A stretch of DNA of 64,000 nucleotides from Bugula neritina (taxonomy: Eukaryota; Animalia; Bryozoa). A program made the position numbers and the translations under genes. The notes under the pieces are model-generated. The model did not search any database, was not told the origin of the DNA, and was given only the letters and a program-made list of their open reading frames with translations. The stretch spans positions 2,232,001-2,296,000 of the forward strand of contig OZ037766.1 in NCBI GenBank assembly GCA_964035545.1. The letters are read 5' to 3'. This document shows positions 9,101 to 54,047 of this stretch, in pieces (position 1 is the stretch's first letter; every line of letters begins with the position of its first letter).

Positions 9101-12100
9101 GAAAATAGAAAATTCTTTAATTACTACGTTTTTGAGATGTTGGAGTTACCTTCTCACACAATATGTATGTTACTACAACCTAGGCTTTACAGTTTACAGG
9201 AATGACCTGAAAAAGTCTAAGAAATTACACTTCATTTTTGTTGTACAAAGTTTCTTGGAGTTTTTGTCCAGTTTTTTATATTATCAACTAAAACCCACAG
9301 AAATTGAAAAAAATCATTGAGTTCATCAAATTGCAGTTCTTAAGTTGAGTCTGCCATTTATTACTTTTCCAGCTAACTTGAGTGTAGAAAACTCAATCTA
9401 ATTGAATATTTTTGTGCATCCATGAAATTGGTAAGGTAGATTTTGACAGTTTGTAGAATAAGAATTTTACTGTTATATCGTCCTTTTAGCTCGGCAGATA
9501 CAATCAGCTTTACCCAGACACACAAAAGACACTGAGTCTGATCAAAATATATTGAGAGGCAAATCTCACACCAAACATTCCACTGACTCTGCTAATTCAT
9601 CTCATAAGGTAGGGAGTGAATCAGTGAGTGAGTGAGTGAGTGAGTGAGTGAGTGAGTGAGTGAGTGAGTGAGTGAGTGAGTGAGTGAGTGAGTGAGTGAG
9701 TGAGTGAGTGAGTGAGTGAGTGAGTGAGTGAGTGAGTGAGTGAGTGAGTGAGTGAGTGAGTGAGTGAGTGAGTGAGTGAGTGAGTGAGTTGGTGAGTGGG
9801 TGAGTGAGTGAGTGAGGGAGTGAGTGAGGGAGTGAGTGAGGGAGGGAGTGAGTGAGTGAATCAGTGAGTGAGTTAGTGAGTGAGTAGGTGATTAAATGAG
9901 TTTTAGTTAAAGGTTATGAGTGAATGAGTGAGTGGTTGAATGATTGTGTTTGATTAAGTAATTGGGTGAATCAGTGAGTTTGAGTGAGTAAATGATTAAC
10001 TGATTGTTTATAGGTGAGTGAGTGATGATAAGTTTTTAAGTGAGTGTAAGTGAGGAAGTGTGTAAGTTAGTGATAGGGTGGAGGTCTTTTGTAAAGCACA
10101 AACTTTCTTATAGCTCTATATTCATTCACTATAACACTGAGTTTAGGCAAATGTATTAATAGAAATGATGTCTTTAAATTACTTATAGGATTATGATAGC
10201 TAAGCTTTATTGTGCAATAGGTGTTAGATAGTGGAGTAGTAGAGAGAGGAAATCAGTATAATATAGTAAAACATTAGATGTTCAAGTAAAACTTTTTGCA
10301 GCTTTTTCTCTAAAAACTTGTATAAAAACAAGGTTATAATACAACATGACTAACTTGGAAAAACTATTCCAAATTGCAAGAATATCTTCTTTTGTGTTTA
10401 ATTTTAAATATTAAACTCAGTATATGCTAAGTCTGTTCCCTCTGAACAAATTTTAGCCCGAGTCTCACAGACTAAGCTGGTCAGCTCAGTCAAAGATAGG
10501 GAGTATGGAGAAGGCCCACCATACACCGGGTGGTGGAGATGTTAAGGTAAGAGGCTATCAAATTGAAGGTAAAAGAAAAGTTATGAACTTTGATATTTGG
10601 TTTATTATCTTTATAAACTTTTGAGCCTTTGATATTTTTTGTTGCTTTTGAAGATACTGTATGAAGATTTTGATCTTCTGATTGCTCTTAGTTATAAACT
10701 AGTCAAACTCATTTTTGAATTTATCCTTTCAAGCATAATTTGGAGTAATTTCAGCTGTTATTTTTGTAACCGAAATTTTCTTTATATGTTGTATACACTT
10801 CTGTTAGATTGAACACAACACTCTTAGCTGGAGTGCACAATCAAAAATAAACAGCCTGCAGCAAGCTAACAGGAGGCCCGCAGGTGGAAATGTAAAGGTA
10901 TGGTTGAAACTTGGCTACAGTAAATGTTTTTTAAGTCATACTACAGGTTTCTAGGCTCACAATTTTAAAAACAAACTTGTTTTATAGTCAGTTATAAAGT
11001 CATCAGTAAACTCTGCATTTCGTATTTGTTATCAGATTGAGAATCAGAGACTGAGTTGGAATGCAGAGTCTAAAATTAAGAGTTTGGAAAAGGCCAACCA
11101 CAAACCAGCTGGCGGAGATGTGCAGGTAAGTGGCGGGCTAGACAGTGACAGTCTGAGTGAGAGACAGAGATAGTCTGAGTGAAGACAGAGATAGTCTGAG
11201 TGAAGACAGAGATAGTCTGAGTGATAGGGAGTGAGGCAGGTCCCTATATTCTATCTCTTTACCTACTAACTTTCCCATTCAGCTTGTTTCAGCTGTTTAT
11301 TGGTTAAACTGATTGTACAGGTTGAATAGCTGAGAGGCTCTACGACAGACTAAACCAAAGAACAACAATTTTTTTCAAACACTAAAACTGCTAAAATTAT
11401 ACATAGAAAAGAAATTATGTATTTTATCATTATTATGTATCTATTGGAAAAGAACAGTTTTCAATTTGAAGTAGTCAAATGGAGTATGTTTCAGCTAATG
11501 GCTGTTTGTTTTTAGTAAAACCAGAAAATCAATGGTTGAATGCCCTATATTAGTACTAGTTGGCAATGGAACAAAACACCCTGAATGTCTGCCATTTTCC
11601 TCAAGCAGTTCACCGATAGCAGCCGAGAAGATAACTCTTAATTAAGGTTTCTATACAGAATAAGTTGTCTAGACACGTGTCACTAGTTTCTGCTGTTTGT
11701 AGATAGAAAACAAACGACTCAGCTGGAATGCTGAATCAAAGATAAAGAGTCTGGAAAAGGCCAATCACAAGCCGGCTGGAGGAGATGTCAAGGTTATATA
11801 ATTGTTTGCTCTCCGAATTGTTGACTTGAAGAGAAATATTCCCACAATGCAAAGCAAGCAGACAGAATATTAAAGCATTTTTTTAATTCATATTTTGATT
11901 GTTGAAAGAAATAATTGTTTGTGACTTATTGTTGTTCAACAGATAGAAAACAAGCGACTCAGTTGGAACGCAGAGTCTAAAATCAAAAGTCTAGAAAAGT
12001 CCAACTACAAGCCAGCTGGTGGAGATGTAAAAGTAAGACATCTAAGTTATACTCTCTGCTTACGTGTAATATGATTGTATTGGCTCAGTGTTTTACTGCT

Positions 12101-15100
12101 GGATCTGTGTTTTCAAATGTTTTAAGCCAACAACTAATTTTTCTGAATACAAAATGTCTTGCAAAACTTTCAAAGTTATTCTTGAAATGTGCTTGACAAG
12201 AAATATTTTTCGATTGGCCTTGATAGCATGTGAATGATATGACCCCTTTTTGATTGTATGCCTCCATAGATATTTCTTCTAAAATGTAAAATTCCGAATT
12301 TCTATCGAAAACTTCACTATTAGGTTTGAGCTTTCAACATTTTGGTAGCACACTGTCCTGTGTAAACACTTTTTTTCAAAAACTTAGTTTCTTTTCAATA
12401 AAAATATCGTAATGCACTTTATTCAAAGTGAACTATAGGTTGTATTTTGAGCGAGTGACTCAAATAATGGCTCAAGAGTCTCAATATTTGATTCAGTGTT
12501 ATTAATTAAACTTGTGCTAATATATTTCCAATAAAATTCTTATAGATAATTGCCAATTAAAATGTGTAAAACAATTATTTTTATGCATTTCTGCAACTTC
12601 TACATTGTAACAAATACTTTGATTTGAGAGTTGTCTTCTACCTAGAGCCAATACTCTTACAGCTCTAACCATCCTATTACTATATTAGTTCATTCACCTG
12701 TCGCTCTGTTTGTTATATAGATAGAGAGTAAGAAATTAAGCTGGAATGCCGAGTCAAAGATTGGGAGTCTAGATAAAGCCCACCATAAACCAGCTGGTGG
12801 AAATGTTAAGGTAAGGTGGTTATTAGTGATATATAGACATGTTTGGTATTCTTATTGTACCAAGTTTAGACTTGGGTGGTTTTTGCTTAATCCTATAACG
12901 GAAAGCTGTTTGCAAAAACCTTTGTACCAAGGCCACCATTTCTTTTAAATTTTTACCTTTAGGTTTAAAATGAGTTTCCGTGGTTTTCCTGTTGTAATTT
13001 GCATGTTGGGGTTAATTTTCATGTTTCTAGATTGAAAACCAAAGGCTCAGCTGGAATGCAGAGTCAAAAATTAGGAGTTTAGAGAAAGCCCACCATAAAC
13101 CAGCTGGGGGAGATGTTAAGGTTGGTTTGGTTCTAAAAATAAGCAATCAATTTAGCTTCTCTGCACATGGAATTTAATTTAATTATATTAATTAATATCC
13201 TTTTATACTAAAAACATAATTCAAAAAGAGTGTTGGACAATTTAATAGAAGTAAAAATTGTATATATTTGGTCATTGGTTGTCATTGGTTGGAGTTGTGT
13301 CATCAATGAAACTCTGCTAACCTTCATAAGTCTTGCCTTAAATAGTTTGATTTGAGTTTGATTTAACCAGCATAGAGTTGTCTGTACTTGTTTCTTGGTG
13401 TAAAAAAGTGAAAGCATTTGTGAGAAGTATCTTTTAATCCTACATAATGCATATTGCTGCCATGAAATAAATCTGTCTGGCGTAGAAATCTTCATGGTAA
13501 GTAAAACAAGGAATTGCAGGTTTTCTAGAAACACAAATAAGTAGTGGCCAGTTGAAAAAATTAAATTTTGCATCATTTTCTTATGTCAAAGTTTTCTAAA
13601 AACACACCTTTTCTGTTCCGTCAAATTGCTTCAACTCTCCATTCACATGAACTGATTCATTGTTTTCATATTTCTAGATTGAAAACCAAAGACTCAGCTG
13701 GAATGCAGAGTCAAAAATTGGTAGTTTAGAAAAAGCCCACCATAAACCAGCTGGAGGAGATGTTAAGGTGAGTTGTGCTGAATTAAAAAACATCCTGTTT
13801 CTACAGGAGTAGTGTTGAATTAAAAGTTCTAGAAAACATTATTTTTTTCTAAAAAAAAGTTGTTGTAATGTCAAGCACTTTGAAACCACATCTCATTGAT
13901 GACTCATGCGTATGACTCAAAGTTGACTGTCGACAGGCATATTGATTATCACAGAAAACAAGAGTTATTTACAGTTACTTTTGTATTACTTTACAAGCTT
14001 TAGTGAGACTCAGAAAAATTCTGGGTTATTTTGAAATAAAAACAGTCCTTTTTTAATTTCTAGGCAAATTTTGTCAACATTTTTAGAATAATTAAATGAT
14101 CTTTCATTTTAAACAACCCTGCAAAGTTCTGAATTTTTTTTCATTTTTTTTATCTCTAATTATTAAGGCCAGTATTTACACTGAACTTCGAAACATGTTT
14201 TCATGTCTGTGATATGTAATAAATCAATCAATCAAGCTTTCCTGGGCTCTTTTTAGTTTTCTCAAATATTTTAGATCTTTGAGGAGAAGCTGCAGTGGGA
14301 CACCGAGGCCCGTATTGGTTCCATGGCTAATGCTGCTTACAAGCCCGCGGGTGGGCAGGTCAAAGTAGAGTCCCACAAACTAGATTTCAAAGATAAAGCT
14401 AAGCCTAAAATTGGCTCTCTGGAAAAAGCCTCTTACACTCCTGGCGGGGGAAACGTTAAAATAGAGCAAAACAGACTCCAGTTTAAAGGTGAGACATTTC
14501 TCAGAGATATACAAATGATTGTTTGTTTTCTGCTGCCTCTACTAGAGGGTAAAGTGTAACTGACATTAAATTGCTGACTTAAATAATGTTGTTTCTTGCA
14601 GTATTGAAAAATAGTTTTAACTTTCAGCAAAAACCAGTTGACTGATTATAGAGTACAGCATGTTTAGCTATGGTTATGCAAGGGAAAAACTTGATGATTT
14701 GCCATTCTAACTTATTCCGCCATTTAGAAAATGGACTCCAGGATATTTCTGTAAACAATAGTGTCTTAGAGAGAGGATAACTCCTAAACTTAGTTCCTTA
14801 TCATGTGTAAACAGCTGTATTGTGTGATTACCTCGCAGCAATGAATAGTCCCTTCATTTCCACTGCTTGTAGAGAAAGCTCAGGCTAAGATAGGCTCCCT
14901 GAACTACGTGAGTCATACCCCGAGAGGGGGAGAAGTGAAGATTGAGACTCATAAGTTGGAGTTCAAAGAGAAGGCGTCTCCACGCATTGGTTCGCTGGAA
15001 AAGGCGTCGCATAGCCCGGGTGGTGGTAATGTGCAGGTATGTATTTACTTGTCTATTAACATGCCGTGGTGCGTTGTGTGCAAACATAATGTAAATATGT

Positions 15101-16690
15101 ACTAAGGATGTGTTTATAACACTACATTCATTAATGTTACTGTATATCTGTTAAATGCCAACTTATTTTGATAGTATATAATGTTTCTCTACACATATTC
15201 AAAGTCTATTAGATATTGTTATTTTTTGATGTAGCAACCACTACCTGGCAACACCTAGTTGTATTGTTTTGTTTCCATGGTTACCACTATATAATTAGCT
15301 TCAATTGTTCAACTTCTAGCATCACTTTTTCTGTAGATACTAAATGAAAAACTGAATTTTCGTGAAACGGCCAAGCCAAAAGTTGGAAGTCGCGACAACA
15401 TCGGCTATATCCCGGGAGGAGGAGATGTCAAGGTAAAGTGTGACTTCACAGAATCTATTAATAACCAGCTGTCTTTATTAATAGCTGAAAGTTGATTGCT
15501 ATCACCTTCTCTCTTCACACGAGTAACAATCTAGTCACAAGAAATGCTTGAACTTTTGTCTTACACTATTTTGCTGCTAACCATGTTTTCTACTTACTCT
15601 AACACTCACAGTGTGCATATTGCAGATTGAATATCAAGTTGTCTCCCCTCGCTCTGATTTCCTTTCCGGACTGTCCAACACCAAACCTGTAAGTTGCAGT
15701 CAAAACCAACTCTATTTTTGTTTTTCAGCAACTTTTCAGTGACTTTATACTTGATGATGAAACATACTACACAGAGGAGCAAATTTTTGTAAACAAGCCA
15801 ATAACTTCTTTGTGAATGAAAATGCGGGAGATTTTTTTCTAGAATTTGTTAAATAAAAAAATTAAATTGAAGTTTCACCGCTGCGCATATGTGTGTCATT
15901 AGAAAGCCAACATTTACATAATCTAACAATGCAGAGAGTTAAGTGCGCTAGAATAATGTATAACATAGAAAGACAATAGTGTGAGAGATACTGTATAACT
16001 TATCATAATCTGCCTTTTGTTGTTGGATATATTTTTATATGAACATCGTCTTTGAATGACTACTACACAATGTAAATGTAACTCTTGGTTTTTCGTAACC
16101 AAAAACTCTTCATCAAAATGTTTCTAAGTTTGTGTCCAGTTAATAGTTGTGCACTCACCGCTAGCAAATAATGAGCCTTGAAAAATTCTGAAATTAGTTC
16201 TGAAATATTCACTATAATATTGCAGCTAAATGTAATTTTATAGTCAAATGTAATATATTATATTATTTATTATTTAACACAAAAAACATCTGCTGTGAAA
16301 ATCTAAAATTTTGATCAACTAAATTTACTTTATTGAAAGCAGCATTTAGCTTTATATACTAAAATAATAACGTCAGCAGTTTTCAAATGACATCGTAGTT
16401 GATAAAAGGGTTGAGGTAATAAGCACAGACGCCACCATCCAGCTTTCTTACTGATATTTAACTGTTTTGTTTTTAATTTTCAGTATTTTTATGTGAAACT
16501 GAACAATAAAATGACTATGCTTTAGGGGAGAAGAAATAGCACTAGCAGCAGCACAAGCAGCGGGCCCCAGTTGCTCCAAGACGTGTCTGCCGCGGCTAAT
16601 GGAGCTAGTCATGTGACAGGTAATGACCTTGACATTGGTCATATGACCGGAGCTGATGAATCAGTCCCTTACCTGCAGAGTGATCTATAA
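3182..16690 (+). CDS. tau: Tau/MAP2/MAP4-family microtubule-associated protein with 13 tubulin-binding repeats (~571-578 aa)
   Basis: Phase-consistent exons: 3182-3223 (uncertain; alternative ATG at 8000), 8021-8174, 9490-9608, 10457-10546, 10808-10897, 11036-11125, 11703-11792, 11943-12032, 12721-12810, 13031-13120, 13678-13767, 14275-14488, 14873-15036, 15337-15432, 15626-15688, 16526-16690 (TAA). Repeats such as VESHKLDFKDKAKPKIGSLEKASYTPGGGNVK and IETHKLEFKEKASPRIGSLEKASHSPGGG carry KxGS and PGGG motifs. The C-terminus (VVSPR...LSN...SSGPQL...DVSA) resembles the tau tail. Probable non-coding exon ending 1447; AATAAA 17478. Confidence 0.92.
3276..3394. repeat. 17-bp minisatellite (cttgtcatgtgacttac) x7
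   Basis: Seven consecutive near-perfect units read directly; each contains GTCATGTGAC. Confidence 0.95.
7170..7420 (-). mobile_element. Degenerate SINE-like element (second family)
   Basis: Minus strand begins with an A-box-like TGGTTCAGTGGTTAGAA; higher GC than the intron background; a faintly similar segment lies near 3690-3840. Confidence 0.3.
9612..9900. repeat. (TGAG)n microsatellite, degenerating 3'
   Basis: Pure gagt tetramer array ~9625-9789 directly after the exon 9490-9608 donor; degenerate copies continue to ~10060. Confidence 0.97.
11143..11223. repeat. ~20-bp tandem repeat (gacagagatagtctgagtga) x3-4
   Basis: Direct reading; intronic. Confidence 0.85.
15231..15284. promoter_or_regulatory. 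Putative RFX X-box cluster
   Basis: GTTTCCATGGTTAC at 15271-15284 (reverse complement GTAACCATGGAAAC) fits the X-box consensus; half-sites TAGCAAC (15232) and TGGCAAC (15246) lie within 40 bp. Confidence 0.4.
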
Positions 16691-24838: not shown

Positions 24839-24991
24839 ATGAGGATCCTGAATGCAAATCTGATTCAGCTGCTAGCCGTGGTACTTCTGGCTCTGACAAC
24901 CTTCGCTGCTGGGAGACAAGCTGGGGCCCCTAACCAAGTGTGTAGGTTTGTACCAGAAAAAGGAAGAATGATTTGCACAAATGGTAATTGA
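24839..24991 (+). CDS. Secreted peptide P1 (50 aa, 2 Cys): MRILNANLIQLLAVVLLALTTFAAGRQAGAPNQVCRFVPEKGRMICTNGN
   Basis: Below the ORF-track length cut-off; translated by hand. Signal peptide resembles P2/P5; VCR...IC aligns to the last two Cys of paralogues; acceptor tttacag 5 nt before ATG; AATAAA 25089. Confidence 0.8.
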   Translation: MRILNANLIQLLAVVLLALTTFAAGRQAGAPNQVCRFVPEKGRMICTNGN

Positions 24992-26706: not shown

Positions 26707-26892
26707 ATGAAGATTGCGAACTTTCCTATGCTGCAAATGGTTGCCATACTGCTGCTGTCACTGATAGCGTTTGCTGCCGCTGGACTCAGACCATGTTACA
26801 CTGATGACGACTGTGACCCCCCTATGGATGTGTGCAGAGAAATTTCGTTTGGAGGTGGTTTCGTGAAGGTGTGCCAGTATAGCGATGAGTAA
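26707..26892 (+). CDS. Secreted Cys-rich peptide P2 (61 aa; CYTDDDC-x6-C-x12-C)
   Basis: Hydrophobic signal ending AFAAA/G; 4 Cys; TATA ~26003, UTR exon donor at 26129, acceptor at 26699, AATAAA 27022. Confidence 0.88.
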   Translation: MKIANFPMLQMVAILLLSLIAFAAAGLRPCYTDDDCDPPMDVCREISFGGGFVKVCQYSDE

Positions 26893-27083: not shown

Positions 27084-27294
27084 TCACGCAAGTTTATAGT
27101 CGCCATCCCTGTGAGAAACCCCTGATAGAAAGGGTTTTTGTTAAAGCGGGCCAAGGGCTTATTTAAATGAAGCACAGGAGCAATTATGACTGGATGCTCT
27201 TCCTAACATCACTAATGGCCTTTGTCAGGGCTCGAACCCATAACCTTCGTGTTTACTAGGCAAACGATCTAACCCCTAGACCACAGCTGCTTCC
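27084..27294 (-). mobile_element. tRNA-derived SINE, copy 2
   Basis: Full-length match to copies 3 and 4; degenerate flanking direct repeat (cttttataggtta / cttatataagtta). Confidence 0.9.
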
Positions 27295-29432
27295 TCTTAT
27301 ATAAGTTAACGCACGGCATGAATTATACCCTGTAGATTTGTAAGGCAATGCCGTTATCTCATGCTATATATAGTAGGTATGTATACATAACAAATAAATG
27401 CGTGCAACAGTGGCACAACAGGATATCCAGGAAGCCTTTGACATCATCAATATGATAAATATAGTTGTAAGCGACCAGTGCATAAATATGTTCAACCAAC
27501 CGTGGCATATTATGCCACATATAGCGTGGATTACTAATATAAGTGTATAGAAATTACCATGATTCCATGTCCAGCAGTTTACTCTGAATCCTAAAGTCTA
27601 AACATTGTACTAATGCATAGAAGACTATATTGAAACTATTCAAGGAAAAAGCAAAATGCACATCGGTTTAATTTTGACAACAGTTTTGTATCTGCTTATA
27701 TGACTTCATGCAGCTCAATGCCATTTTTAATCTTGTTTGTGTAAAAGTCATCTAACTTTTCTAGAAAAATTATATTATATTTGGACCACATAACATGCAG
27801 CTTAGCCAATACAATTAATGAACATTACATATTAAACTGATTAATTTGAGTTAGAACCGAACTCAATACAGTAATGTAACTAGTGGCAGTGGCTGAAATT
27901 GTCCATCTGGATTGCTCTCAAATGCTTCAATACTTAATGTCAAGCTACCTATAATAATACCAGCATTCAAGCTGTTAGCATATAATATATAGCATTATAT
28001 GGTTTATAAATTGCTGATTAGTGGTAATTGGTTCCATTTAATGTCTAAACAAAAGAAAGAGTGTTATAAGGAGACATATTTGATAACTTTTATCATGTGT
28101 TGGCTGATAAACATTATTTTACTAGAATATCTTTTATCATTTAGATCTGTGCATAACAAAACAACTAGTAGCAACTATAAGCATACATTAATTTAACATA
28201 TTATTTAACTCCTATTCTTCAGCAAAATGCTTTCATAAAAAGTAAGGCATGTGGCTAAATACATATTGTTTTGTTTCTAATGTTGAGTGTCTGAGTGTAT
28301 GTCAGCTCTACTCTACTATATATATATTTGATTTGTATTTACAGTAGTTTGGTTCTTAAACTGGATTTCAGCTTAAAATTTGATGATTAAGACTTATTTC
28401 TGATCTTGAATCTGTATTAGAAGTTCATTATCTGTTCCAATGCTTGCTTGCTTCAGGCTGTAAGCAATTTGTAGTAATCTACTTCACCGTGTATAGTAAA
28501 TATAGTTTCAGTGCTGAAATTAGTACAAACTTTTAGTTAAATTTAAGGGGCACTGCTGTTAGTAGCTGCATAGAACATTGTGTAAAGCATGATTATAAAA
28601 GTAAAAGCTGTTTTTGCAAAATCACCAACTAATTTTATTGTTTGAAAATAAAATAGCTAACTGCAATGAAGGCAAAAACTTAACAAAATAATTTTCAACA
28701 ACATATAGGCATCAACATTATATAAATTGATTATCAAAAGAAATGCCTTTATGTCGTAAATTCTGCATCCGTCATACCATTATTGCGAGTTGAGCGTCGA
28801 ATCGCTGTAACAAATGGCAAGATAAATTGATTAAAAATATTGCACAAAATGAAAACTAAGAAATAATTTACCAGAAGTACCAATAATCTTTACCAATTTG
28901 CTATGATGTAAAGTTAACTAGAAACATGTAAAACAAAGCATAATATGTTAACATGTATAATGACCTTGAACATTATAACTACTATAACTGCATATAATAG
29001 ATGTTGCAAACATCTGGTATGTTTTCTAACAATTTTAGAAAAAAAATTTTAATGGCTCTGCATTAACTTTGTTATAGAAACTGCCTTTTTTACTATATAT
29101 ATAAAGGCTGTGTTTCACAGTACAGATAATTTAGAAAGTTCAAGTGATTGAACTTTCTACAATCTTCTGTCTGAAAGTTATATTGACTGCATGACCAACT
29201 GTCTCACTCTATATAAACTTATATATTCCATGTCAGAGAAAAACAACAACATTTAAGAAGTTGTTCCCTCTTTTTATTTATAAAGTTTTTGTTAAATTTC
29301 ACAAAATAAATGCGTAGGTTTTTATATATTTGCGATATCTTTGTTGTTGAACACATGTTATTATTGTTTTCAAAGATTTCATGTAAACATGAAGCAAGCA
29401 AAGCAGGGAAACTTATACAACTCTTACATAAC

Positions 29433-29639
29433 TCACCAATTAATGGTTTTTGATGGCAGACAAAAACTTAAAATTTTCCCATCTCGTATGCCTGGGGCTA
29501 GTTGACACGTCCACCAATCAGTGCAGTCCTCATCTGACACACAAGGTCTCAGGGTAAGGGAAACTGAGTTGTGTGCCAGCAACAAAATTGATGCAATTAA
29601 AAGGAGCAACAATGAGGAAAAATAATTTGAAATATTCAT
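29433..29639 (-). CDS. Secreted Cys-rich peptide P3 (68 aa; LRPCVSDEDC-x5-C-x14-C)
   Basis: Signal peptide plus the family Cys frame; duplicate of P4; putative 5'-UTR intron (acceptor 29678, donor 30016). Confidence 0.88.
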   Translation of the reverse strand: MNISNYFSSLLLLLIASILLLAHNSVSLTLRPCVSDEDCTDWWTCQLAPGIRDGKILSFCLPSKTINW

Positions 29640-31342
29640 GTTTATTGTTGCAATGTTTTCCTTAATAAGTATTCACACTATAAAAGCTTAGAATAAAATG
29701 CAGTAACACTTACAAGGTACAAAATAGGTGAAGCATATATAATTATAACTTATCTCTAACTCTTAGGAAGTAACATATGGCAAAGTTTGACGTCATGTGA
29801 TTATTATACTTAAGGATTGGTTAAAATATATACATCAAACCAATAATACAACAGCTTTTATAACATGAGGCAACAAAAATTATTATAGTTGTTTTTTTGA
29901 GCAGTTTTAAAAATATAAAACTTAGAGTTGTCTACTCAAAACATCATTTTAATTTATAGTTTTATTATTGTAATAAACTCATGAAGGGAGTGAAGATTCT
30001 GGCATACATAACTTACAGAAACTATTATTGATACCACATTACTTGCTATAGGTAGTGTATAGTTTTGTTTTACAACAGGTGAGTAAGTCCCCCACGGAAC
30101 AATTATTGTCTACCCTCATTTAGTATAAGATTAGATAGAGTAAACATGCATGCTTTACTCAGTGTCTACTTATACAGGTGATTCGGGAAAATTATTGCTT
30201 TAAGCTAATACGGTTGGATAAGCTATGACAGAGAATAGCAGTAGCATAATAACTATCATATACTGCACAGACTATAGTTATTTACTACAAAGCTTATTTC
30301 TGATCTTAACTCTACGCGAGAAGTTCATTATCTGTTATAATACTTGCTTTAGGCTGTAAAAAATTTAGTAGTCTACTTCGCTGTGATTAGTCAATAAAGT
30401 TTCAGTGCTGAAATTAGTACAACATTTCATTTAAATTTAATTGACACTACTGTTAGCAGCTGGAAAATTGTGTGTATAGCATGATCATAAAAGTAAAAGC
30501 TGTTTTTGCAAAATCGCCAACTAATTTTATTGTGTGAAAATAGAATAGCTAACTGAAAGCAAAAACTTAACTAAATATTTTTCAACAATATATGGGCATC
30601 AACTTTATATAAATTTATCAAAAGAAATACCTTTATGTCGTAAATTCTGCATCCGTCATATCATTATGTTCAATTCTAGCGCCAAGCTGTAACAAATGGT
30701 AAGATAAATTGACTAAAAGTATTGCAGAAAATAAAAAAGACAAAATAATTAGCCATTATTATAGGTGCCGATAATGTTTAGCAAATTGCTACGCTGCATG
30801 TAGCTTCTTCATTGGTTAACTAGACGCATGAGAAACAAAGCATATTAACATATATACTGATGTAATGCCCTTGAACAAGATTCACTATATGCATATATTA
30901 GATATTGCAAATATTTGGTATGCTTTCAAATAATTTTAGAAAAGAAATTTGATCGGCATTAACTTTGTTGAAGAAATTGCCTTTTCTACTATATATAAAG
31001 CATGTGCATTACAATACAAATAATTTAGAAAGTTCAAGTGATTGAACTTTCCAACCTTCTTCTGCTTGAAAGTTATATTGACTAACTAACTGTCTCACTC
31101 CCTGCATAAACTTATATATATTTAGTGTCACAGGAAACAACAACATTCAGGAAGTTGTACCTTGTTTTTATTTAGGAAGTTTTTGTTGAATTTCACAAAA
31201 TATATTCGGATTCCTTCGTAGGTTTTCATTTGATTTCGATAATTTTGTTTTTGAACACATGTTATTATTTTTCTCAAAGATTTCATGTAAACACGAAGCA
31301 AGCAAAGCAGGGAGACCTATACAACTCTTATATAACTCACCA

Positions 31343-31537
31343 TTAAGAGCTTTTTGGTGGCAGACAAACAGTGATGGAACTCCAATCCTCTCTGCCTGGG
31401 ATTGGTTGACACGTCCACCTATCAGAGCAGTCCTCGTCTGACGCACAAGGTCTCAGGGAAACTGAGCTGTGTGCCAGCAACAAAATTGATGCAAATAAAA
31501 TGAGCAACAATGAGGAAAAATGATTTGACATATTCAT
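31343..31537 (-). CDS. Secreted Cys-rich peptide P4 (64 aa; LRPCASDEDC-x5-C-x14-C)
   Basis: As P3; the same candidate UTR splice sites are conserved (acceptor 31576, donor 31942). Confidence 0.88.
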   Translation of the reverse strand: MNMSNHFSSLLLILFASILLLAHSSVSLRPCASDEDCSDRWTCQPIPGREDWSSITVCLPPKSS

Positions 31538-33361
31538 ATCTATTGTTGCAATGTTTTCCTTAATAAGTATTCACACTATAAAAGTTTGTAAGAATTAATA
31601 CAGTAACACTTACAAGATACAAAATAGGTGAAGCATATATAATTATAACGTATCTCTCTAATTCTTGGGAAGTAACATATGGCAAAGTGTGTCGCCATGT
31701 GATTATTATACTTAAGGATTGGTTAAAATATATACATGAAACAAATAATACAACAGCTTTTATAACATGAGGCAACAAAAATTATTATAGTTGTTTTTTA
31801 AACTGTCTTAAAAATATAAGACATTAGAGTTGTCTACTCAGAACACCAGTTAAATCTATAATGTTGTATTAAAGTGGGCAAAGGGAGTATTAGCACATTA
31901 GGTAAAATATTTATTATGTACATTCTGATATATGTAACTTACGGAAATGGATATTGACACCACCTTACTTGTTAGGTAGTGCAGTTTTGTTTTACCACGG
32001 GTGAGTAAATCTTAGTAGCCTATAGCTATTATAGGATTAAATAGAGTAAACATGCATGTTTTACTCAGTGTCTAACTGATATAGGTGATTTGAGAAAATT
32101 TATTGCTTTAAGCTAATACAGTTGGATAAGCTATGACAGAGTTAACAGCAGTAGCATAATAAATATTATACCGCATGGTATATAACTACTTACTACAATA
32201 AATCCAGCTATATATAACATATGACTCTAGCCTGCGAATGGAAATAGCATATATATTTGATAGATTAAAAGTTGCTGCGTTTCATAAACCGCTGGTGTAT
32301 TTAGCTACTATAAGTAGTAATATCTGTGTTAAATCATCAATTAGGTGAGCCTACTTAAAAACAATGTTTAGACAGAGGAGATAACTCTATAGGGATATGC
32401 AGCTACAGCATCAAGGAAATTGTAACTGGTGGTTAAAAACTATATAAGAGATGCAATAATTTCAGGGAATTTTTGACCATTTGGCACTCCATATAATATA
32501 GAACCAGGAAAGTGCAGGTGGAGCATGCATATACTTTTATACAGTGAAAATGCATAATTTTTAATGCTATTGCACCACATGCCATTTTCTAAGGTAATAT
32601 TTAAGACAAAATATGCATTTATTTAACTGAATATGTGCTCTGGTAAAACTAGCTCTGTTCTATTTTGACGTTGCCAGCAGTGCGTCAAGCCTGAAATAAT
32701 AAACAAATATATCTAGTGAGTGAAGAGCAGCGCAATATAATAACTAATTTCACTATTTCATTTGCACTGTATAGAACGCTAAGACTTACCGGCTAATAAA
32801 ATAATTCTTTAATATTAAATTTCTGCATTGCTGCAAATTTTTAGCTGCATGAATCATAAGTTTTTTTGTTTGCTGTATTAATTACTAATAGCCAATAATA
32901 TTTCAACACGCACTGTGTATAAAGACTTTTAACTAGTTTATGTACTCATGCACTGTATTATTTTTGACGAAATTTCAAAATTTTCGAAGATATTGAGACC
33001 AACTGGCTGAATAAAAATTAGTTGAGTACGTTTCAAATTAGCTTACAGTTTTCATTCATTTTTAAACATAAGCATGGCCCAGGATTTCTACCCATAGTTG
33101 TGATAGAGCAGATACAATAATTTATGATTACGTAAAGCCATCACAACTCTCACCCTAACAATACTCTAGGAGTCTCAAGGATATTAAAGCTTCAGCTTGG
33201 ACAGAGATCTACTTTGATGAGCTGATAGAAATACACCCCAGCACAGCCTAACTTGTAAAAACATAAGTGAGAATTATGGGATGTTCTAGTTGTAGAGAGC
33301 TCGCCATGGCTATACATGCCCTAATGCAGCTCTACAGCATTACAGTATTGTTCAGCATAGC

Positions 33362-35945: not shown

Positions 35946-36523
35946 AAAAGTTTAAATTACATATTATATTTTATTTTAGATATATTATTATACATATTAT
36001 TATTTAATATATTGCTGTAGGTATTGGTCTGTTTTTGAGCTTAATTATTTAAAATTTTGTACTATAACATTAAATTAATTAATTAATCAAGGTATATTAT
36101 TTTAACTTGAATAAAATACTAATTTCCATGATTCTTATAATACTTCATTGTTTTAATTACAAGCAGCATGATACTGGTACTGGCTGCCGTTCAATAGAAA
36201 TAAAAAATCGGATGTACAAGAAGAATAGAATTAATAACAAAACATAGCAAAGTGCACAAAAATATGTACATAATTACTGTTTATATATTTACTAGATAAT
36301 TTAATATATACTAACCTGTGACATTTGTATATAATATAATAGGAAGACAGGATTTCATATAAACTGCATAATTTGCACAACATATCTTAAAAATAAGTTT
36401 TGATTGCATTTTTAGCTAATGATTATTAGACGAAAACATTGTTGAAAGTTATACACAAAATATATCTTATGCTAAAATATGGCAAGTGTTGTTTGTTTAT
36501 TAATGATTTTGTTTTTAGCTAAA

Positions 36524-36721
36524 ATGAAGATTGCAAACTTTCATCTCTTACTGCAGAAGGTTGTCGTGCTGCTGTTGTGTCTGACAGCAGCTAGCTTTTC
36601 TGCTTCAGGTTACTGTAAATCAGATGCTGACTGCCCCCCTCAGAGACCTAAATGCGTACAAACTCCACGATTTTTTTTTCCTTATCGGAAATTTAGTGTG
36701 TGCAGTAATCCCGGTTATTAG
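36524..36721 (+). CDS. Secreted cationic Cys-rich peptide P5 (65 aa; CKSDADC-x6-C-x15-C)
   Basis: Likely start MKIANF (same as P2) at 36524, 5 nt after acceptor gtttttag; signal peptide; 4 mature Cys; AATAAA 36824. Confidence 0.88.
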   Translation: MKIANFHLLLQKVVVLLLCLTAASFSASGYCKSDADCPPQRPKCVQTPRFFFPYRKFSVCSNPGY

Positions 36722-37348: not shown

Positions 37349-39772
37349 TATAATAACAGGAAAATAGTTTGATGTATATTTATTTCAACTATTGCAATGT
37401 TTTCAGTAAGCATCTGCACTATATATGAAAGCATAGAACCAAAATTTTATTAAAAGTACAGAGGAAAGCACTGCAACATTACTTTTAATAACAATTATGC
37501 AATAATAAACAACTCGCTAATTTTTATAAAGTACTTCATAGAACACTATTGCTATGATAATGTTAACCTTTTAGATTAACATTATTACTGTCTATTTACA
37601 AAGGTAGTACGAACCTGTTATACCTGTATACATAGTAGCTAAAAAGGAGAAATTTATACGTGTATAAAACATAATTTACACATCATATTTAAAAAAGGTT
37701 TTGATTGCATCTTAGCTAAATATCATTAGACGAACAGAGAAAAGTACTACAACATTAATTTTAATAACAATTATGCACTAATAAACAATTTGCTAATTTT
37801 TATAAAGTATTTCATAGCACACTATTACAATGATAATGTTAAACCTTTAGAGTTTAAATCAACAAAGAATTTGGATAATGACCTTGTGCTTACTTAAATG
37901 CTCTATCCTGTAGACAATGTCTATTCCCTAATAGGTGAAACTGATAAGTATTATGTCATATTAACATAGTAACATATTATTAAAAATTCTATTATTGTTT
38001 TTTTATAGTTGGCTGTATATATACCGTGTTTCTTACAAATATTTTATCTTAATATGTCAATTTAAAGTCATATTTAATATAATATTATATTGACACAAAG
38101 TGTAAATCATGTGACTTTGGCAACAGCTCATGCTTTTGTAGAGCTAAAAGCATATAATGGTATGGAATATAGATAAAAAGCTTTGGCATAGCTTTAACTT
38201 ATATATTTTTGCTCTATATTTTGGAAAAAATGAATTTAGGGGCTGACTTATGATTATATAGGTATAAATTTTGATGCTTGAATGATGTAGAACTTTACTG
38301 CAGACCAGATATATTACATTTTTAATTATACTGCTCTGTGTTGCCATACACGGTATATATCACAAGTGCACGTGTCACATACATAATACTTGTGATATGC
38401 GTCATCTGTCACTAACTACCACTACTGTTATAGTAGGGGACAATGACCTTATGTCAAGGTTATATCTGTGTCAGATGCAGAGGTCATGATAGCGACAGAC
38501 CTTTCATATAGAGGTTGTCGAAAAGTGGATAAGATATTTATAAACTGCTATAACACTTACATAAAACTCTCTATCTCTCTCTCACACACGCACGCACACT
38601 TGCACACACACACTCTCTCTATTTTCCACACATGCACTCTCTTTCTCTTCAGAATCATAGTGATGAGTTTTACTCTGTAGTTTTTCTAACTTTAAAAGGA
38701 AAAATAAACGTAACAGCAAAGTGCTATATTCAGTCAAGTCAAAATACCATACATGTTTTAACAACAATTCTTTTCAACAAGGAAAACTTTTTGGCACTTT
38801 ACAGTTTAGCTTCCTCATGTGATTAATTTTAGTAACTAAAGTGTGAAATTTACCATATAGGAATATTGATTTATCATCTTAAATTGACAGTTTCAAAACC
38901 TGCCTAATATATACAAACAACTAAATATATCTGCTCTATTTGTCTTCATCTTTTTGCTGTGGAAGCTGCAGGTTTGTAAAGCATGTACACACTTCATATT
39001 TAACATTTTATCCTTAAAACTCAACATTATACTATAACAGGGTTTTTTTATACGCTGCATATATAATATTCTATTGTTTAATTGCTAATTAAAATCAAGC
39101 AAAACTTTTGGCAATTTGTATATCATTCTATATATGCAACAGTTAAACAAAATATTGCACAGTATTTATAATTATATAAGCTAGCTATATTATATATGTT
39201 GTCACGTTATATATATCTATAACAGTATAGGGTTGCATATGTTCAGCTTCATTAAAATGTATACATAAATTAAAATTAGCATATTTTATAGGCAATAATA
39301 ACATAATTATTATACACAGCTAGAATATATACTAATTATAGTAGAAAGAGATGAGGGTTTAGTGAAGTACGTTTCTATTTATAGTATTGCTTTATACAAT
39401 TGAACGGTATGTAGTATACATAATACATACTCGCACGTGAATATTAATAAAGGGAGGAGCATATATTATTATTGATAGTAGAAGATTTTCAAACTTGATC
39501 TTTAGTCAAAACTATCAATGCTAACATATAAGAGTCTTACAACAAAATAAGAATTCTTGTATATATGAGTTAATTTTTGTTATGCAAATAATAATTTATA
39601 AGTATCACTGAAGAAAAGGTTTATTGTACTGAGTTTGCTGTGAAGTTTTAGTCAACACAAAATGTTATCTTTATCTTTAAATGCCCATACGTACCTCTGT
39701 TTTTGAAACTGCAATTCAATGGTCTTGTTATATTTGTCATTATATGCATTTCATTCCATTTCATGTTGTAGA

Positions 39773-39943
39773 ATGTCTACTCTGTTACTTCAACTGCTGA
39801 CCATGTTGCTGTCGCTGCTAGTAATGCTAGCTGCTGCCGGACCGATGCTATGTGATACGGATGCTGACTGCAATAACCCAATCTTTGTCTGTAGAGAAAG
39901 AATGATCAACCAGCACTGTCTTGGCATCTGCGTGTTTGGCTAA
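39773..39943 (+). CDS. Secreted Cys-rich peptide P6 (56 aa; 5 mature Cys): MSTLLLQLLTMLLSLLVMLAAAGPMLCDTDADCNNPIFVCRERMINQHCLGICVFG
   Basis: Acceptor ttgtag 1 nt before ATG 39773; signal ending AAAG like P2; family Cys frame; candidate UTR exon donor at 38971. Confidence 0.85.
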   Translation: MSTLLLQLLTMLLSLLVMLAAAGPMLCDTDADCNNPIFVCRERMINQHCLGICVFG

Positions 39944-48056: not shown

Positions 48057-48636
<580 letters not shown>

Positions 48637-50487
48637 AATTCTTTAACTATATATGATATAAAAAAAGGTTAAATAAAACATAAATAATGTATAGTAACCG
48701 GTATATCGCATTATATAAAACACAAAACTTAATGAATAAAAAGCAAAGCTTACACTTAAATATTATGAAAAGAAGCGATTTCAGTATATAATTTTGTATA
48801 ATTGTCTAGTTTCTAGTTCATTTCTATACTTTTCACAGCAGGTCTTTAAAAACGGAAAAATAAAATTAGTTTTAAGTTTTAATTTTAATTAGTTTTGCTA
48901 AAAAAAACCTTTTAAATAGTGTTTCTATGGTAAATATAGCTTATTTAAGTGTATATGAACTTTTCAAAAAGGTGTTAATTAAACAATTTAGCTAATTAGA
49001 GGAATTAATCAATAAGCAGTTAAAACTTTTATAAATGTTGGGTTCAAAAAGTCAAAAATGTTTGAAGTGAATAGAATTCAATTCTCACCTATTTTCACCT
49101 ATCTCCGCTTTGCCTTGTTTAGGTATAGCAGGAAATTATAGAATTCAATATTTACAAATTAAAATAAATTTTAACAGTCAAATTCGAGCTACATACATTT
49201 ACTATATCCACTACAGCTGGTTCTGAAATACAAGCGACCATAAAAACTAATTACAAAATATATATAATATAATAAAACGTTGAACATTTCTGATAGCTTG
49301 GGAAGGTCTTGTATTGTCTGAAACAGTTTCATAAAAAATCATAAAGTGGTAAAATATTAAAAACAAAGTGAAGTGAATATCAATTTTCACAAGCTATTAT
49401 AGTTGATTATTTTTGCTTTAAAAGTTGAAAAATTGTTGCCTAGCATAAATCTGATTATTTTTGCCTATCTTAGCTAGATTCAAAAATTAATTATTATAAT
49501 ATGAAGTTTGAAAAATAGGAAATAATAAATAAGGTTGTTAAACACAGTTTCTTGCACTTTTGTTTAGCAATAAACAATGAATAAATAATTAGGGCTGTCA
49601 ACATGCAACAATACATAATTAGAGCACATTTGCATATAATAACTCCTTTATTAATATATACAATATAATATGAATTGAATATAATAAGTCTAGTAAAAAG
49701 TGGTAGGAAAATTTAATTGAGGCTGTTATTATAAATAACAATAAAAATAAATTAAATGCACTTTATTAACTTGGTATTACTTTTCTATGTTTATAAGACT
49801 TTAAGCAAAAAAATGCTTTACAGACTGTTGCTGCAAAAAACTAGTGCTAAGATAAAAAGAAAAGCTGCACATGCAAAAGACTAGAGATATAAAAAAACTT
49901 TTGTAAATGATCTTTGTAATACTTTTCAAACATATAAATGGCTTCATACTTTATTTAACATTAAATCGTTCAACATATTTTACTTACAAAGTTTGATTTG
50001 CTCAATCAATATAAACATATGATCAGACATGATAAAACATTTACTGCTCAATTAATCAGCTCTCTTTGAAAGCCCTGTTGCTTTATTTCAGCTATATAAA
50101 GCACCGGGTGTTACTTTTCAGCCTCAAAAGCTATTTTAAACATCAAACATTTTTGAATAAAACGAATTTTAATTAATTACTCTTTTCCATTCAATTAATT
50201 TTCTAGATATAATTGAATGAATCAGGGCAAAATAATGATTTAATATACAAATTTGTACAAATTGGAAATATTTTTAAATAGTCATGCATAGTATGCATAA
50301 CGTTGCTTTGACTGTTTTGTCTATATTAGAGTATTATTTAGTTTAAATCTTTAATTTGTTATAATATCATTTACTATAAAATTAGTTTGCCAAATTTTAA
50401 TTTCTCTTTTTGAAAAAAATAAAAGCACACATGCAGTAATTGTAAGCTTAGCATAGCTATATCAAATATTATGCTGTGTAAAAGATA

Positions 50488-50705
50488 AACTCACGCAAGT
50501 TTATAGTCGCTATCCTTGGGAGAAACCCCTGATAGAAAGGGTTTTTGTTAAAGAGGGCTAAGGACTTATTTAAATGAGGCACAGGAGCAATTATGATTGG
50601 ATGCTCTTCCCAACATCACCAATGCATGGCCTTTGTCAGGGCTCGAACCCATAACCTTCGTGTTTACTAGGCAATTGCTCTAACCCCTATACCACGGCTG
50701 CTCCC
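50488..50705 (-). mobile_element. tRNA-derived SINE, copy 3, with perfect 18-bp target-site duplication
   Basis: tatgctgtgtaaaagata at 50470-50487 and 50706-50723. Confidence 0.95.
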
Positions 50706-50952
50706 TATGCTGTGTAAAAGATATATGTTAAATATAATTTCTGGTAAACTGAGCTAAAGCCAGTAATTGCATATAATAGTTAGCAAACTTTAATGTATCT
50801 ACAATACTGACTTGGTTTAAATTTATCAACTTGAAATAAAATTTCACTCTATTTATTATGCAATACTGCAAATACATATACTTCGATAATTTGGATAAAA
50901 GAGAGAAGTTTATGATATAGTTGGCAGTTTTGCTTTACATGTACGATGCAAA

Positions 50953-51030: not shown

Positions 51031-51644
51031 GACTACTGGGTAAACTCAACACTAGATATACAATATTTTGATGGGTTGGTGGCTCCTAAAACATATACAT
51101 AATTCGTATACTATATCTTACATCTTACGTATAGTTGCTAATCTAATTATATGATGCACTCAAAAGTCTGGGATGACAAAAGGATTACATATACAGGCAA
51201 TGAAAATTGTCTGAAGATTTTTGTGGGAATTTGGAATGTGGAAATAAGCAACCCTTCCTTTGATTGATTGACACTTATTTTTAGCTCCTACAACTTGAAC
51301 AAAGTGTGCCACATAATTGCATGCAAAGACTGCTTCAGTAGAGCCAATCATAAAGTCTAAAATTACTATAAAAGCTGCTAGTCTCCGAGAAACCATCATA
51401 CTGCTAGGTATCACTCCAAGACTATACATCTACAGTAAGTCTCTTCTATACGCATCTGTTTCTAGAACTCAGATTGCTTTTACAATATTTTTTACATCCA
51501 CATAAATTATAGTTTTCAGTGCGGGTATGTTTGTAAAATATTATATAATTTTTGGTCTTCTAAATATTAGTTTAGTTCTAAACAAAATGTACTTATTCTA
51601 TATTATGTTTTAGTACAGGTCTTACTGGTGCAATAGGGAGAACA

Positions 51645-53192
51645 ATGGAATACAAAATATTGGCACTAGTGTTGGTGCTTTTTGTTGCTCAGTCTTCAGG
51701 ATGTGACTGCAAGAATTCTCATCACCACCACCACCCTCATCACCGTCGCCACTCTCACCACTCCTGTCACACTCATCAACTTCACCGATCTCATCGTTCT
51801 CACACAGAACAAGCTAGGAGACACTATGCCCCACAACCATGGAATGCACCAACAACCACTACAACTAGAAGACCACCACCTACACCACCAAGAACTTGGA
51901 ATCAACCAACTACCACCACCTATCGACCACCAACCACAACCCCTCCTCGCAGATGGAGCTCTACCACCACCACTAGGAGACCAACCACAACACCTCCTCA
52001 GAGATGGAGCTCTACCACCAGAAGACCACCAACTACCAGACCTCCACAAACATGGCGAGTGCAGACAACAACCCACAGACCACAAGTTCACCACAGACGC
52101 CCAGTAACTAATCCCCCAGTAACTACCAGACAAGTTCCAATAACACCAATTCCTCAGCCAGTTCCTAGGTAATAAATGCAAAATAATACACAACAAACTA
52201 GAAATTATGTTTGCAAATATGTATATGGTACTCAAGAGTTATTTATATTGCAGCTTGATGTATTATAACTTAGTGTAACTTTGTTGAACAGCTGGGTTGG
52301 AAGAACAAGTAGAGGACGCCCCGTGATTGGTGTGACCAACCAAGGTCGTCCAATCATAACTGGCTCAGTACCAGCTCCACTTCCTGTCCAGCCGAGACCA
52401 ATTCACCTGCCGAGAATCCCTCAATCAAGTGAGTCTCTGGAAGGCAGCTTTTCTTCTGAGTTCCAAGGAATTGGAGACAGCAGCTCCTTCGACTCTTCTG
52501 CTAACAGCCACTCTTTTGAAGGCAGCGACAGCAGTGGCTCATTTGGCAGCAATTCTGAAGACAGCCATTCCTTTGAAGACAGCCATTCCTTTGAAGACAG
52601 CCATTCCTTTGAAGATAGTCATTCTAGTGAAGCCATCCACTCAAATCCTCACCAGAGGTTTACTGCTAGTAGCGGATCATTTGGAAGTAGTGGTTCCTCT
52701 GAGAACACGTTCCAGCGGCCCATCCAAAGAACTCCACCAGTTAGAATAATCCCAGCAGTAGGACAAAGACCACCACAGATATTCCGAACAAACCAAAGAC
52801 CTCAAATAATACTTCCACGGCAATCAAGTGAAAGCAGCTCAGAAGAAGGGCAGGCTCAAAGAGTTCGGGTGATCCATCCAACCCCGGTCGCACCTCGGCC
52901 GCTTTCTCCACAACCAAACATTCCCAGAGTACAACTCAGCAGACCAAACCTGCAACCACCACGTCAACAGCAACAATTGCCACGTCAACAGCTACCAGGG
53001 CAGCAGCAACAACTACCACGGCAACCTCAGAGAGTGGCTACACTACAAGTTGTTCCCCGGAGACCACAACTTCCTGTGACACCTCAACAGTTCCCGTCAT
53101 TAAGGTTGATTCAACGACCAACCGAATTGATTACCAGAGGCAACAGGGGAGGCTCGTCAGAGGGCAGTGATAGTTCAGGCGGTGATGATTAA
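51645..53192 (+). CDS. Secreted low-complexity modular protein (474 aa): His-rich, W/PT/R repeats, S-x-E acidic and R/P/Q-rich blocks; candidate matrix/adhesive/biomineralisation protein
   Basis: Exons 51645-52168 and 52292-53192 join in phase 2 (AG|C). Signal MEYKILALVLVLFVAQSSG. TATAAAAG 51367, UTR exon donor 51434, 3'-UTR intron 53199-53410, AATAAA 53708 and 53742. Confidence 0.88.
52557..52628 (+). repeat. Coding 18-bp repeat (EDSHSF x3 + EDSHSS)
   Basis: gaagacagccattccttt x3 exact plus one variant. Confidence 0.95.
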
Positions 53193-53826
53193 GAAATGGT
53201 AAGTCAAGCAACACATTCTTAAAAATCAAAAACTCAGATATTGAAAAATTGTAAAAATCAAAACTTGATTCATTTTGCTTTTGATACATGAATATAATGT
53301 TTTATCCATTATATTAACATGTAAATTGATGTATTAGAAAATTATTTTAGCTGAGGAAAGTGAGTGGCTAATTGAAACCAATAAGTATTTTTATTCTCTT
53401 TTATTTGCAGAAAATGATGACAGCAGAGCCTACAAGGATGAGTCAGATAAAAACTTTTGCAACATATGCATGTTTTTTTTCACAATTGTAAGGTGCTGTA
53501 AACAATTGCTAATCTTTTGAGTGGAAATTCGTTTTCAAACTTGAAATTTTAGATTTTTCATTTGTTATAAACACGTTTTCAGGTTTATATTATGTATAAT
53601 TTCATGTTATTCAAAAATTATTAGCTTTGTTAAAACTTTATTTTTTCGTTTACCAAATATATTATAGGTGCTTCAAGTTGTATTTTATTGCTATATGGGT
53701 TGTAACAAATAAAAATATGCTGCGGTTCTAAGCTACAACAGAATAAAAAAATATGTTATTTGCTGTTAATCAGCACAAATGTTATAATGTGTTTTATAAA
53801 CAAAATCAAATGTAATAGCTGTTGAA

Positions 53827-54047
53827 GGGAGCAGCCGTGGTCTAGGGGTTAGAGCGCTTGCCTAGTATTAAACACAAAGGTCATGGGTACGAGCCCGGAC
53901 AAAGGCCATTGGTGATGTTAGGAAGAGCATCCAGTCATAATTGCTCCTGTGCCTCATTTAAATAAGTTCTTAGCCCGCTTTAACAAAAACCCTTTCTATC
54001 AGGGGTTTCTCACAGGGATAGGGACTATAAACTTGAGTGAGTTTGTG
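53827..54047 (+). mobile_element. tRNA-Thr(AGT)-derived SINE, copy 4 (sense orientation)
   Basis: A box TGGTCTAGGGG, anticodon-like gcgcttgcctAGT, B box GGTACGAGCCC (GGTTCGAGCCC in copies 2 and 3), tgag-rich tail; 10-bp TSD agctgttgaa at 53817-53826 and 54048-54057. Confidence 0.93.

Follow-up and report, generated by a model that had tools for sequence, protein, structure and literature searches.

Divergence of the C3–C4 loop in tandemly duplicated cysteine peptide genes from a bryozoan, Bugula neritina

The window analysed here is a 64,000-nt stretch of Bugula neritina DNA, in which a small cysteine peptide gene is present as two tandem copies, P3 and P4. The loop between the third and fourth cysteines (C3–C4) of the two copies diverged more than the non-coding DNA of the duplicated unit. 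This divergence is real; positive selection on the loop is likely, not proven. The favoured reading, to which a probability of about 0.6 was given, is that the peptides are secreted mini-scaffolds whose C3–C4 hairpin selection would have reshaped, once the gene was duplicated, to act against foreign proteins.

The duplicated unit and its peptide family

P3 and P4 lie in 1.9-kb units arranged head-to-tail, with 79.7% identity over 1973 columns by self-blastn (Table 1). They are part of a group of six related single-exon cysteine peptide ORFs, small and of secreted type (P1–P6), within 15 kb. All six share a hydrophobic N-terminus, and five carry the framework C-x2-D-x-D-C-x5/6-C-x12/15-C. This motif had 5 occurrences in the window and was absent from every one of 30 shuffles. 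The signal peptides of the six were judged from hydrophobicity, with cleavage sites set by eye; on this basis the hydrophobic N-terminus of P3 is likely a signal peptide of residues 1 to about 27.

Table 1. Positions of the peptide genes, duplicated units and associated elements in the window
Feature	Position	Strand	Remarks
P1 paralogue	24839..24991	plus	50 aa; signal related; last two Cys only (C-x10-C)
P2 paralogue	26707..26892	plus	61 aa; C-x5-C-x6-C-x12-C
Tandem duplicate unit with P3	28393..30290	minus	self-blastn
AATAAA, possible poly(A) signal	29273..29278	minus	155 nt 3' of P3 stop; present in both copies
P3 ORF	29433..29639	minus	68 aa; C-x5-C-x5-C-x14-C; net charge about −1
P3 C3–C4 loop	29463..29504	minus	codons 46–59; predicted beta-hairpin
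TATAAA, possible promoter (putative function)	29857..29862	minus	223 nt 5' of P3 ATG, within conserved upstream block
Tandem duplicate unit with P4	30293..32198	minus	self-blastn
AATAAA	31167..31172	minus	171 nt 3' of P4 stop
P4 ORF	31343..31537	minus	64 aa; framework as in P3; net charge about −2
P4 C3–C4 loop	31367..31408	minus	predicted beta-hairpin; contains perfect 7-bp inverted repeat
TATAAA (putative function)	31759..31764	minus	227 nt 5' of P4 ATG
P5 paralogue	36524..36721	plus	65 aa; C-x5-C-x6-C-x15-C; cationic (+4)
P6 paralogue	39773..39943	plus	56 aa; four framework Cys and a fifth Cys (Tyr in relative P0002)

The closest relative of P2 was B. neritina EB796_023416, with 82% identity. 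A profile gave 14 hits, P0001 and P0002 among them; 6 were inspected and 6 longer ones were left out. Further relatives from database records were P0002, P0003 and P0004, and P0009 was a probable member. P0005, P0012 and P0014 were rejected as repeat or multi-domain look-alikes. P0009, an ENA record of 70 aa, shares the LRPC-x2-D-x-DC start and the four Cys but has a different signal; it may be an instance of the family from another animal. No relative was found with P4 as single query, P1–P6 had no exact match in the protein collection searched, and metagenome scans confirmed 0 of 595 and 0 of 597 pattern hits as relatives. Within the window, no further family member or relic was found beyond P1–P6. 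Pieces without a peptide ORF that resemble the DNA upstream of P6, P5 and P3/P4 (34986–35376 vs 39237–39652; 36367–36434 vs 37670–37734; 37361–37438) are possibly relics of lost copies.

The structure of five mature peptides was predicted with AlphaFold2. The P4 model (pLDDT 83.8) showed a turn at 8–10 and strands at model residues 16–21 and 28–33; P3, modelled alone, had the same layout (pLDDT 74.5). The C3–C4 loop is thus predicted to be a beta-hairpin, preceded by a short C1–C2 turn. The dense differences between P3 and P4 cover the tip and second strand of this predicted hairpin. The nearest folds were knottins such as EETI-II (rmsd 1.2–1.4, 1.2 over 27 residues; Z 3.3), and all fold matches were below significance (best structural Z 3.9, best Foldseek E 0.65). 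The best E of a PDB sequence search was 0.52. A search of Atlas features gave a best score of 0.83 and a conotoxin score of 0.82, which is a lead only; the Atlas search by structure returned nothing nameable. A two-disulfide core like that of Min-23 would be expected, with C1–C3 and C2–C4 pairs by likeness to squash inhibitors. P1 keeps only C3 and C4, which this connectivity would not pair with each other; a hairpin with one disulfide is possible for P1, or its two Cys may hint at a different connectivity.

The net charges of P1–P6, calculated with cleavage sites set by eye, were +3, −5, −1, −2, +4 and −2, so that four of the six were acidic. Because the peptides are mostly acidic, target binding is the more likely putative action for most of them, over membrane lysis.

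The window is animal DNA with tau/MAP repeat exons, and its GC content was 29–41% outside stretches of 27%. A multi-exon tau/MAP-like gene with at least 8 copies of the tubulin-binding repeat lies at 10440–15500 (plus strand), and all 3 of the 3 exon frames tested passed PF00418. A dispersed SINE-like repeat of about 215 nt occurred in four copies with 86–91% identity (355–492, 27084–27295, 50487–50706 and 53826–54044), one of them just 3' of P2. Searches for tRNAs and Rfam families gave no match, for this repeat as well. A likely secreted repetitive protein, His/Thr/Pro-rich and then Ser/Gln-rich, is encoded at 51582–53189 (plus) in at least 2 exons, with no notable Pfam match. Tandem paralogous multi-exon genes at 55571–56972 (minus) and 62538–63766 (minus) had no Pfam match above cut-off. 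A (CA)n microsatellite of about 580 nt occupies 48058–48640.

Divergence of the loop and tests of selection

The differences between P3 and P4 had been counted by hand in a sequence-only reading of the locus, and codon alignment reproduced these counts. All 5 nucleotide differences ahead of C1 were non-synonymous. Between C1 and C3, 3 differences were non-synonymous and only 1 was synonymous. The C3–C4 loop differed at 17 of 42 nucleotides and at 10 of 14 residues. The two copies had identical codons for all four Cys and for the four loop residues that they share. In a single pair, unchanged Cys codons are weak evidence (about 0.57 by arithmetic at 13% divergence). The alignment also showed an in-frame indel of 6 nt ahead of C1, at P3 codons 28–29, and, after C4, 4 more non-synonymous differences, with P4 stopping earlier than P3.

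The loop divergence was above the non-coding average of the unit after formal alignment as well. The non-coding divergence of the unit was 12.5–15.5% over four gap settings. The sequence-only reading had set the loop against the DNA just upstream of the ATGs, which was indeed more conserved: 20–22 of about 299 columns (7%) differed in the 300 nt 5' of the ATGs. This is, however, the most conserved flank, about twice as conserved as the non-coding DNA of the unit. The comparison flatters the contrast, because the upstream DNA is only 7% divergent and has a shared TATAAA.

Divergence was 2–3 per 21 nt before the loop and 1–2 per 21 nt directly after the stop; within the loop, 12 of the 17 differences were packed into 21 nt (29469–29489). 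By scan permutation, the chance of finding at least 17 differences in any 42-column window of the unit was 0.0015–0.029, for a loop that was picked after looking at the data. The single-window beta-binomial P was 0.0005–0.01. With overdispersion and all 45 windows allowed, P was 0.022 or 0.46, depending on alignment. Stiff gap penalties produced 2–18 sliding non-coding windows, out of about 1,545, that held 17–20 differences. Under lenient penalties the loop count fell to 10 of 39, as some differences became small indels. When adjacent differences were merged as single events, the loop held 9–12 events, which 2.5–8.5% of non-coding windows matched (event-counting P 0.006–0.078). One non-coding segment of the unit had 33 differences in 165 positions between P3 and P4.

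The ratio omega was estimated with an MG94 model in which non-coding divergence served as the neutral rate. Loop omega was 4.1–5.1 (p 6e-6 to 6e-5), and omega for the rest of the CDS was 0.69–0.84. With the neutral rate doubled, loop omega was 2.0–2.5 (p 0.007–0.036). From the coding data alone, the ML omega was 3.66 for the whole CDS (p 0.021, with about 3.5 synonymous differences behind it) and 2.95 for the mature region (p 0.075). The loop-only value of 3.33 was not significantly greater than 1 (p 0.14), and pS in the loop was 0.25. NG86 Fisher tests were not significant for the loop (p 0.22) or the whole CDS (p 0.13); the NG86 codon bootstraps gave 0.048 and 0.020, respectively. The earlier claim of positive selection therefore held against the non-coding neutral rate and weakly for the whole CDS, but not for the dN/dS of the loop itself.

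The variability of the loop was compared in other family pairs, and the loop had been named before the replicate sequences (P0001–P0004) were seen. In P2/P0001 and in P6/P0002, 5 of 12 loop residues were different. Pooled, these pairs differed at 10 of 24 loop residues vs 11 of 89 other residues (p 0.0025), and at 15 of 38 residues in C2–C4 vs 5 of 69 before C2 (p 8e-5). The C2–C3 segment differed at 5 of 14 residues and C1–C2 at 0 of 14. P0003 and P0004 had 21 of 22 N-terminal (signal) residues in common and 2 of 14 loop residues; for P5 and P0003 the values were 18 of 22 and 1 of 15. Faster change in the loop is supported by these results and recurs in the family. The replicate pairs are compared as proteins, without dS and with uncertain orthology, and so reveal where hypervariability lies rather than what causes it. 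Under relaxed constraint, too, surface loops are more variable than scaffolds.

Assembly, other samples and ancestry of the copies

An assembly artefact, in which two alleles of one locus were set in tandem, had been named as a possible refutation by the sequence-only reading. High heterozygosity is described for the B. neritina genome (PMC7576161), and other samples seem to carry one unit. In run X1, however, one 527-nt contig crossed the unit junction (29868–30394) with no other letters at depth 128. The listed contigs in both units had depths of 93–128, whereas in the P4 unit a genuine bubble of two alleles had depths of 72 and 66; the source sample may have been X1 itself, and depth per contig is a rough guide. 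The bubble variant at 31346 was synonymous. These data speak against uncollapsed haplotypes, and an artefact of this kind is very unlikely.

Three further samples, X2, X4 and X7, come from two studies, one of which is common to X1. They share the joints 28768->30668, 31101->29243 and 31559->29664, and their contigs continue with sequence resembling the outer flanks, in keeping with a single unit in each. The single-unit reading rests on these joints and not on missing cover over the P3 CDS alone. No RNA run was listed among those carrying the sequence, a result with no bearing on whether the genes are expressed; the RNA label of X4 is a guess, and because its contigs cover flanks, X4 did not count as evidence of expression. 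Their P4-like gene differed from P4 by 5–9 letters over 238–317 nt, where P3 and P4 differ by 35–42. The P4 coding sequence, including its loop, is conserved across these lineages and is not diversifying between them.

Relative to the X7 sequence, at least 30 of the 35 CDS-region differences fell on the P3 side. The comparison with X2, X4 and X7 fits P3 having raced ahead and P3 being an older lineage alike. Together with the joining of X2, X4 and X7 across the P3 position, it also accords with a decaying duplicate, in which P3, once duplicated, would have been released from constraint and have changed neutrally. P3, however, keeps its ORF, four Cys, the DxDC motif, TATAAA and AATAAA, and its model still folds. 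Omega outside the loop was below 1, and neutrality cannot give a loop omega of 4–5. Decay of P3 is accordingly an improbable explanation.

The X2/X4/X7 unit was closer to P3 upstream (25–29 letters vs 64) and closer to P4 at 30668–30853 (8–9 letters vs 33 between P3 and P4) and in the CDS (5 vs 35). Ancestry thus changes from one part of the unit to another, the outcome expected of conversion or unequal crossing-over. This pattern is consistent with a conversion mosaic in a tandem array: P3 and P4 would be older than apparent, parts of the unit would have been homogenised, and the loop would be an unconverted or once-replaced tract under relaxed constraint. Synonymous sites outside the loop point in the same direction, with only 1 of 34 different (P 0.046 at 13.5%), as do the clustering of loop differences, the small indels of the lenient alignment and the inverted repeat in the P4 loop. 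Inverted repeats of this kind, however, occurred in 10% of unit windows, and 12–14 loop differences remained without the repeat. The runs of differences in the loop were not fewer than random (9 vs 10.6 expected for 17 scattered changes, P 0.25). The loop omega was still significant at the doubled neutral rate, and the peak coincided with the loop that is variable in unrelated pairs too. No donor for the P3 or P4 loop was found in the window. The sequence-only reading had named one conversion or indel event as a possible cause; the clustering and the ancestry switches are compatible with such an event, and the lack of a donor in the window speaks against it. The mosaic is possible, though somewhat unlikely. 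Template switching at the P4 inverted repeat was tried as a separate candidate and rejected; it was not beyond chance and accounted for at most 5 of the 17 differences.

Under the favoured reading of retuning by selection, P3 and P4 are tandem copies within a six-ORF cluster of predicted secreted two-disulfide knottin-like peptides. The C3–C4 hairpin is likely the target-binding surface under diversifying selection. Duplication would free one copy, and selection would retune its hairpin against microbial, parasite or grazer enzymes or receptors. Unequal crossing-over or conversion would reshuffle the flanks, so that copy number would differ among samples.

Comparison with known systems

The sequence-only reading had called the divergence conotoxin-style. 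Conotoxins have a conserved signal and Cys scaffold with hypervariable inter-Cys loops (PMC3823881), and the same family-wide pattern was found here. The description is apt as an evolutionary pattern only; P4 itself showed conservation between samples, with 5 other letters over 238 nt, and none of P1–P6 matched a conotoxin Pfam family up to E 1. The peptides also differ from conotoxins in having little or no pro-region and a single coding exon. The suspension-feeding bryozoan host is not known to have a venom apparatus. The Cys codon bias of conotoxins was only partly seen: all 4 codons were kept in P3/P4, but across five paralogues bias was present only at C1 (5 of 5, TGT), with agreement of 4 of 5 at C2 and mixed codons at C3 and C4 (3 of 5 each).

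MgCRP-I of Mytilus galloprovincialis, a non-venomous filter feeder, is a lineage-restricted, secreted, Cys-rich family described as shaped by duplication and positive selection, with its function open (PMC4558851). Its conserved pre-pro part and hypervariable mature region resemble the pattern found here. MgCRP-I peptides are described as having six Cys with CC (adjacent C3–C4), a dibasic pro-region, a three-exon CDS and a mostly cationic character (PMC4558851), whereas the bryozoan peptides have four Cys, no CC and one coding exon, and four of the six are acidic. P1–P6 share the pattern of conotoxins and MgCRP-I and are members of neither.

All 5 of the 5 four-Cys peptides matched the legume NCR family PF07127 (E 5.7e-5 to 0.0034; 18.2–23.8 bits, below the gathering cut-off of 30.4); the matches ended before C4, and P1 had none. 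The likeness lies in a signal followed by four Cys with CxxDxDC. The peptides had the features by which NCRs are defined, namely a signal, four or six regularly spaced Cys and a mature part of 20–50 aa (PMC7230169), with the signal judged here by hydrophobicity only. Because the host is an animal, this likeness is likely convergence. NCRs are described as subject to purifying and diversifying selection; they regulate symbionts in legumes, and NCR-like peptides perhaps do so in aphids (PMC7230169). B. neritina hosts a bacterial symbiont (PMC7230173). Because of this symbiont and the regulation of symbionts by NCR-like peptides, a role in symbiosis can be put as a bold case. The family would then be an independently evolved, NCR-like bryozoan arsenal of natural single-domain two-disulfide mini-knottins. 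Diversification of the hairpin would serve the recognition or control of bacteria, among them the symbiont that produces bryostatin, and copy number and loop would differ among Bugula lineages. This case is unlikely and is offered as speculation by analogy.

The evolutionary pattern itself is common and is known from venom and immune peptides, and the family of P1–P6 is apparently unnamed. No literature on such a bryozoan peptide family was found by title and abstract start in the open-licence literature, and the words "peptide" and "cysteine" are absent from the main text of a 2020 review of bryozoan chemistry (PMC7230173). Gene-encoded defence peptides thus seem little studied in Bryozoa. 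A clustered, fast-evolving two-disulfide family offers concrete candidates for the dealings of the host with microbes or grazers.

Weak sequence likeness to carboxypeptidase-inhibitor knottins was found (E 0.016–0.087; cf. potato carboxypeptidase inhibitor). The peptides differ from knottins with an inhibitor cystine knot in having four framework Cys and no third disulfide, and hence no knot. The predicted turn at C1–C2 followed by a hairpin fits the layout of the CSB motif and of the disulfide-directed hairpin (DDH) as in scorpion phi-liotoxin-Lw1a, the best matches being knottins and below significance; the hairpin here, at 12–15 residues, sets the peptides apart from both DDH peptides and knottins. 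Min-23 is described as a peptide that has two disulfides and carries the CSB motif (PMC2659701). Single-domain DDH peptides are given in a 2016 paper as known only from scorpions (PMC5086648), and the bryozoan family would add a natural single-domain hairpin fold beyond them.
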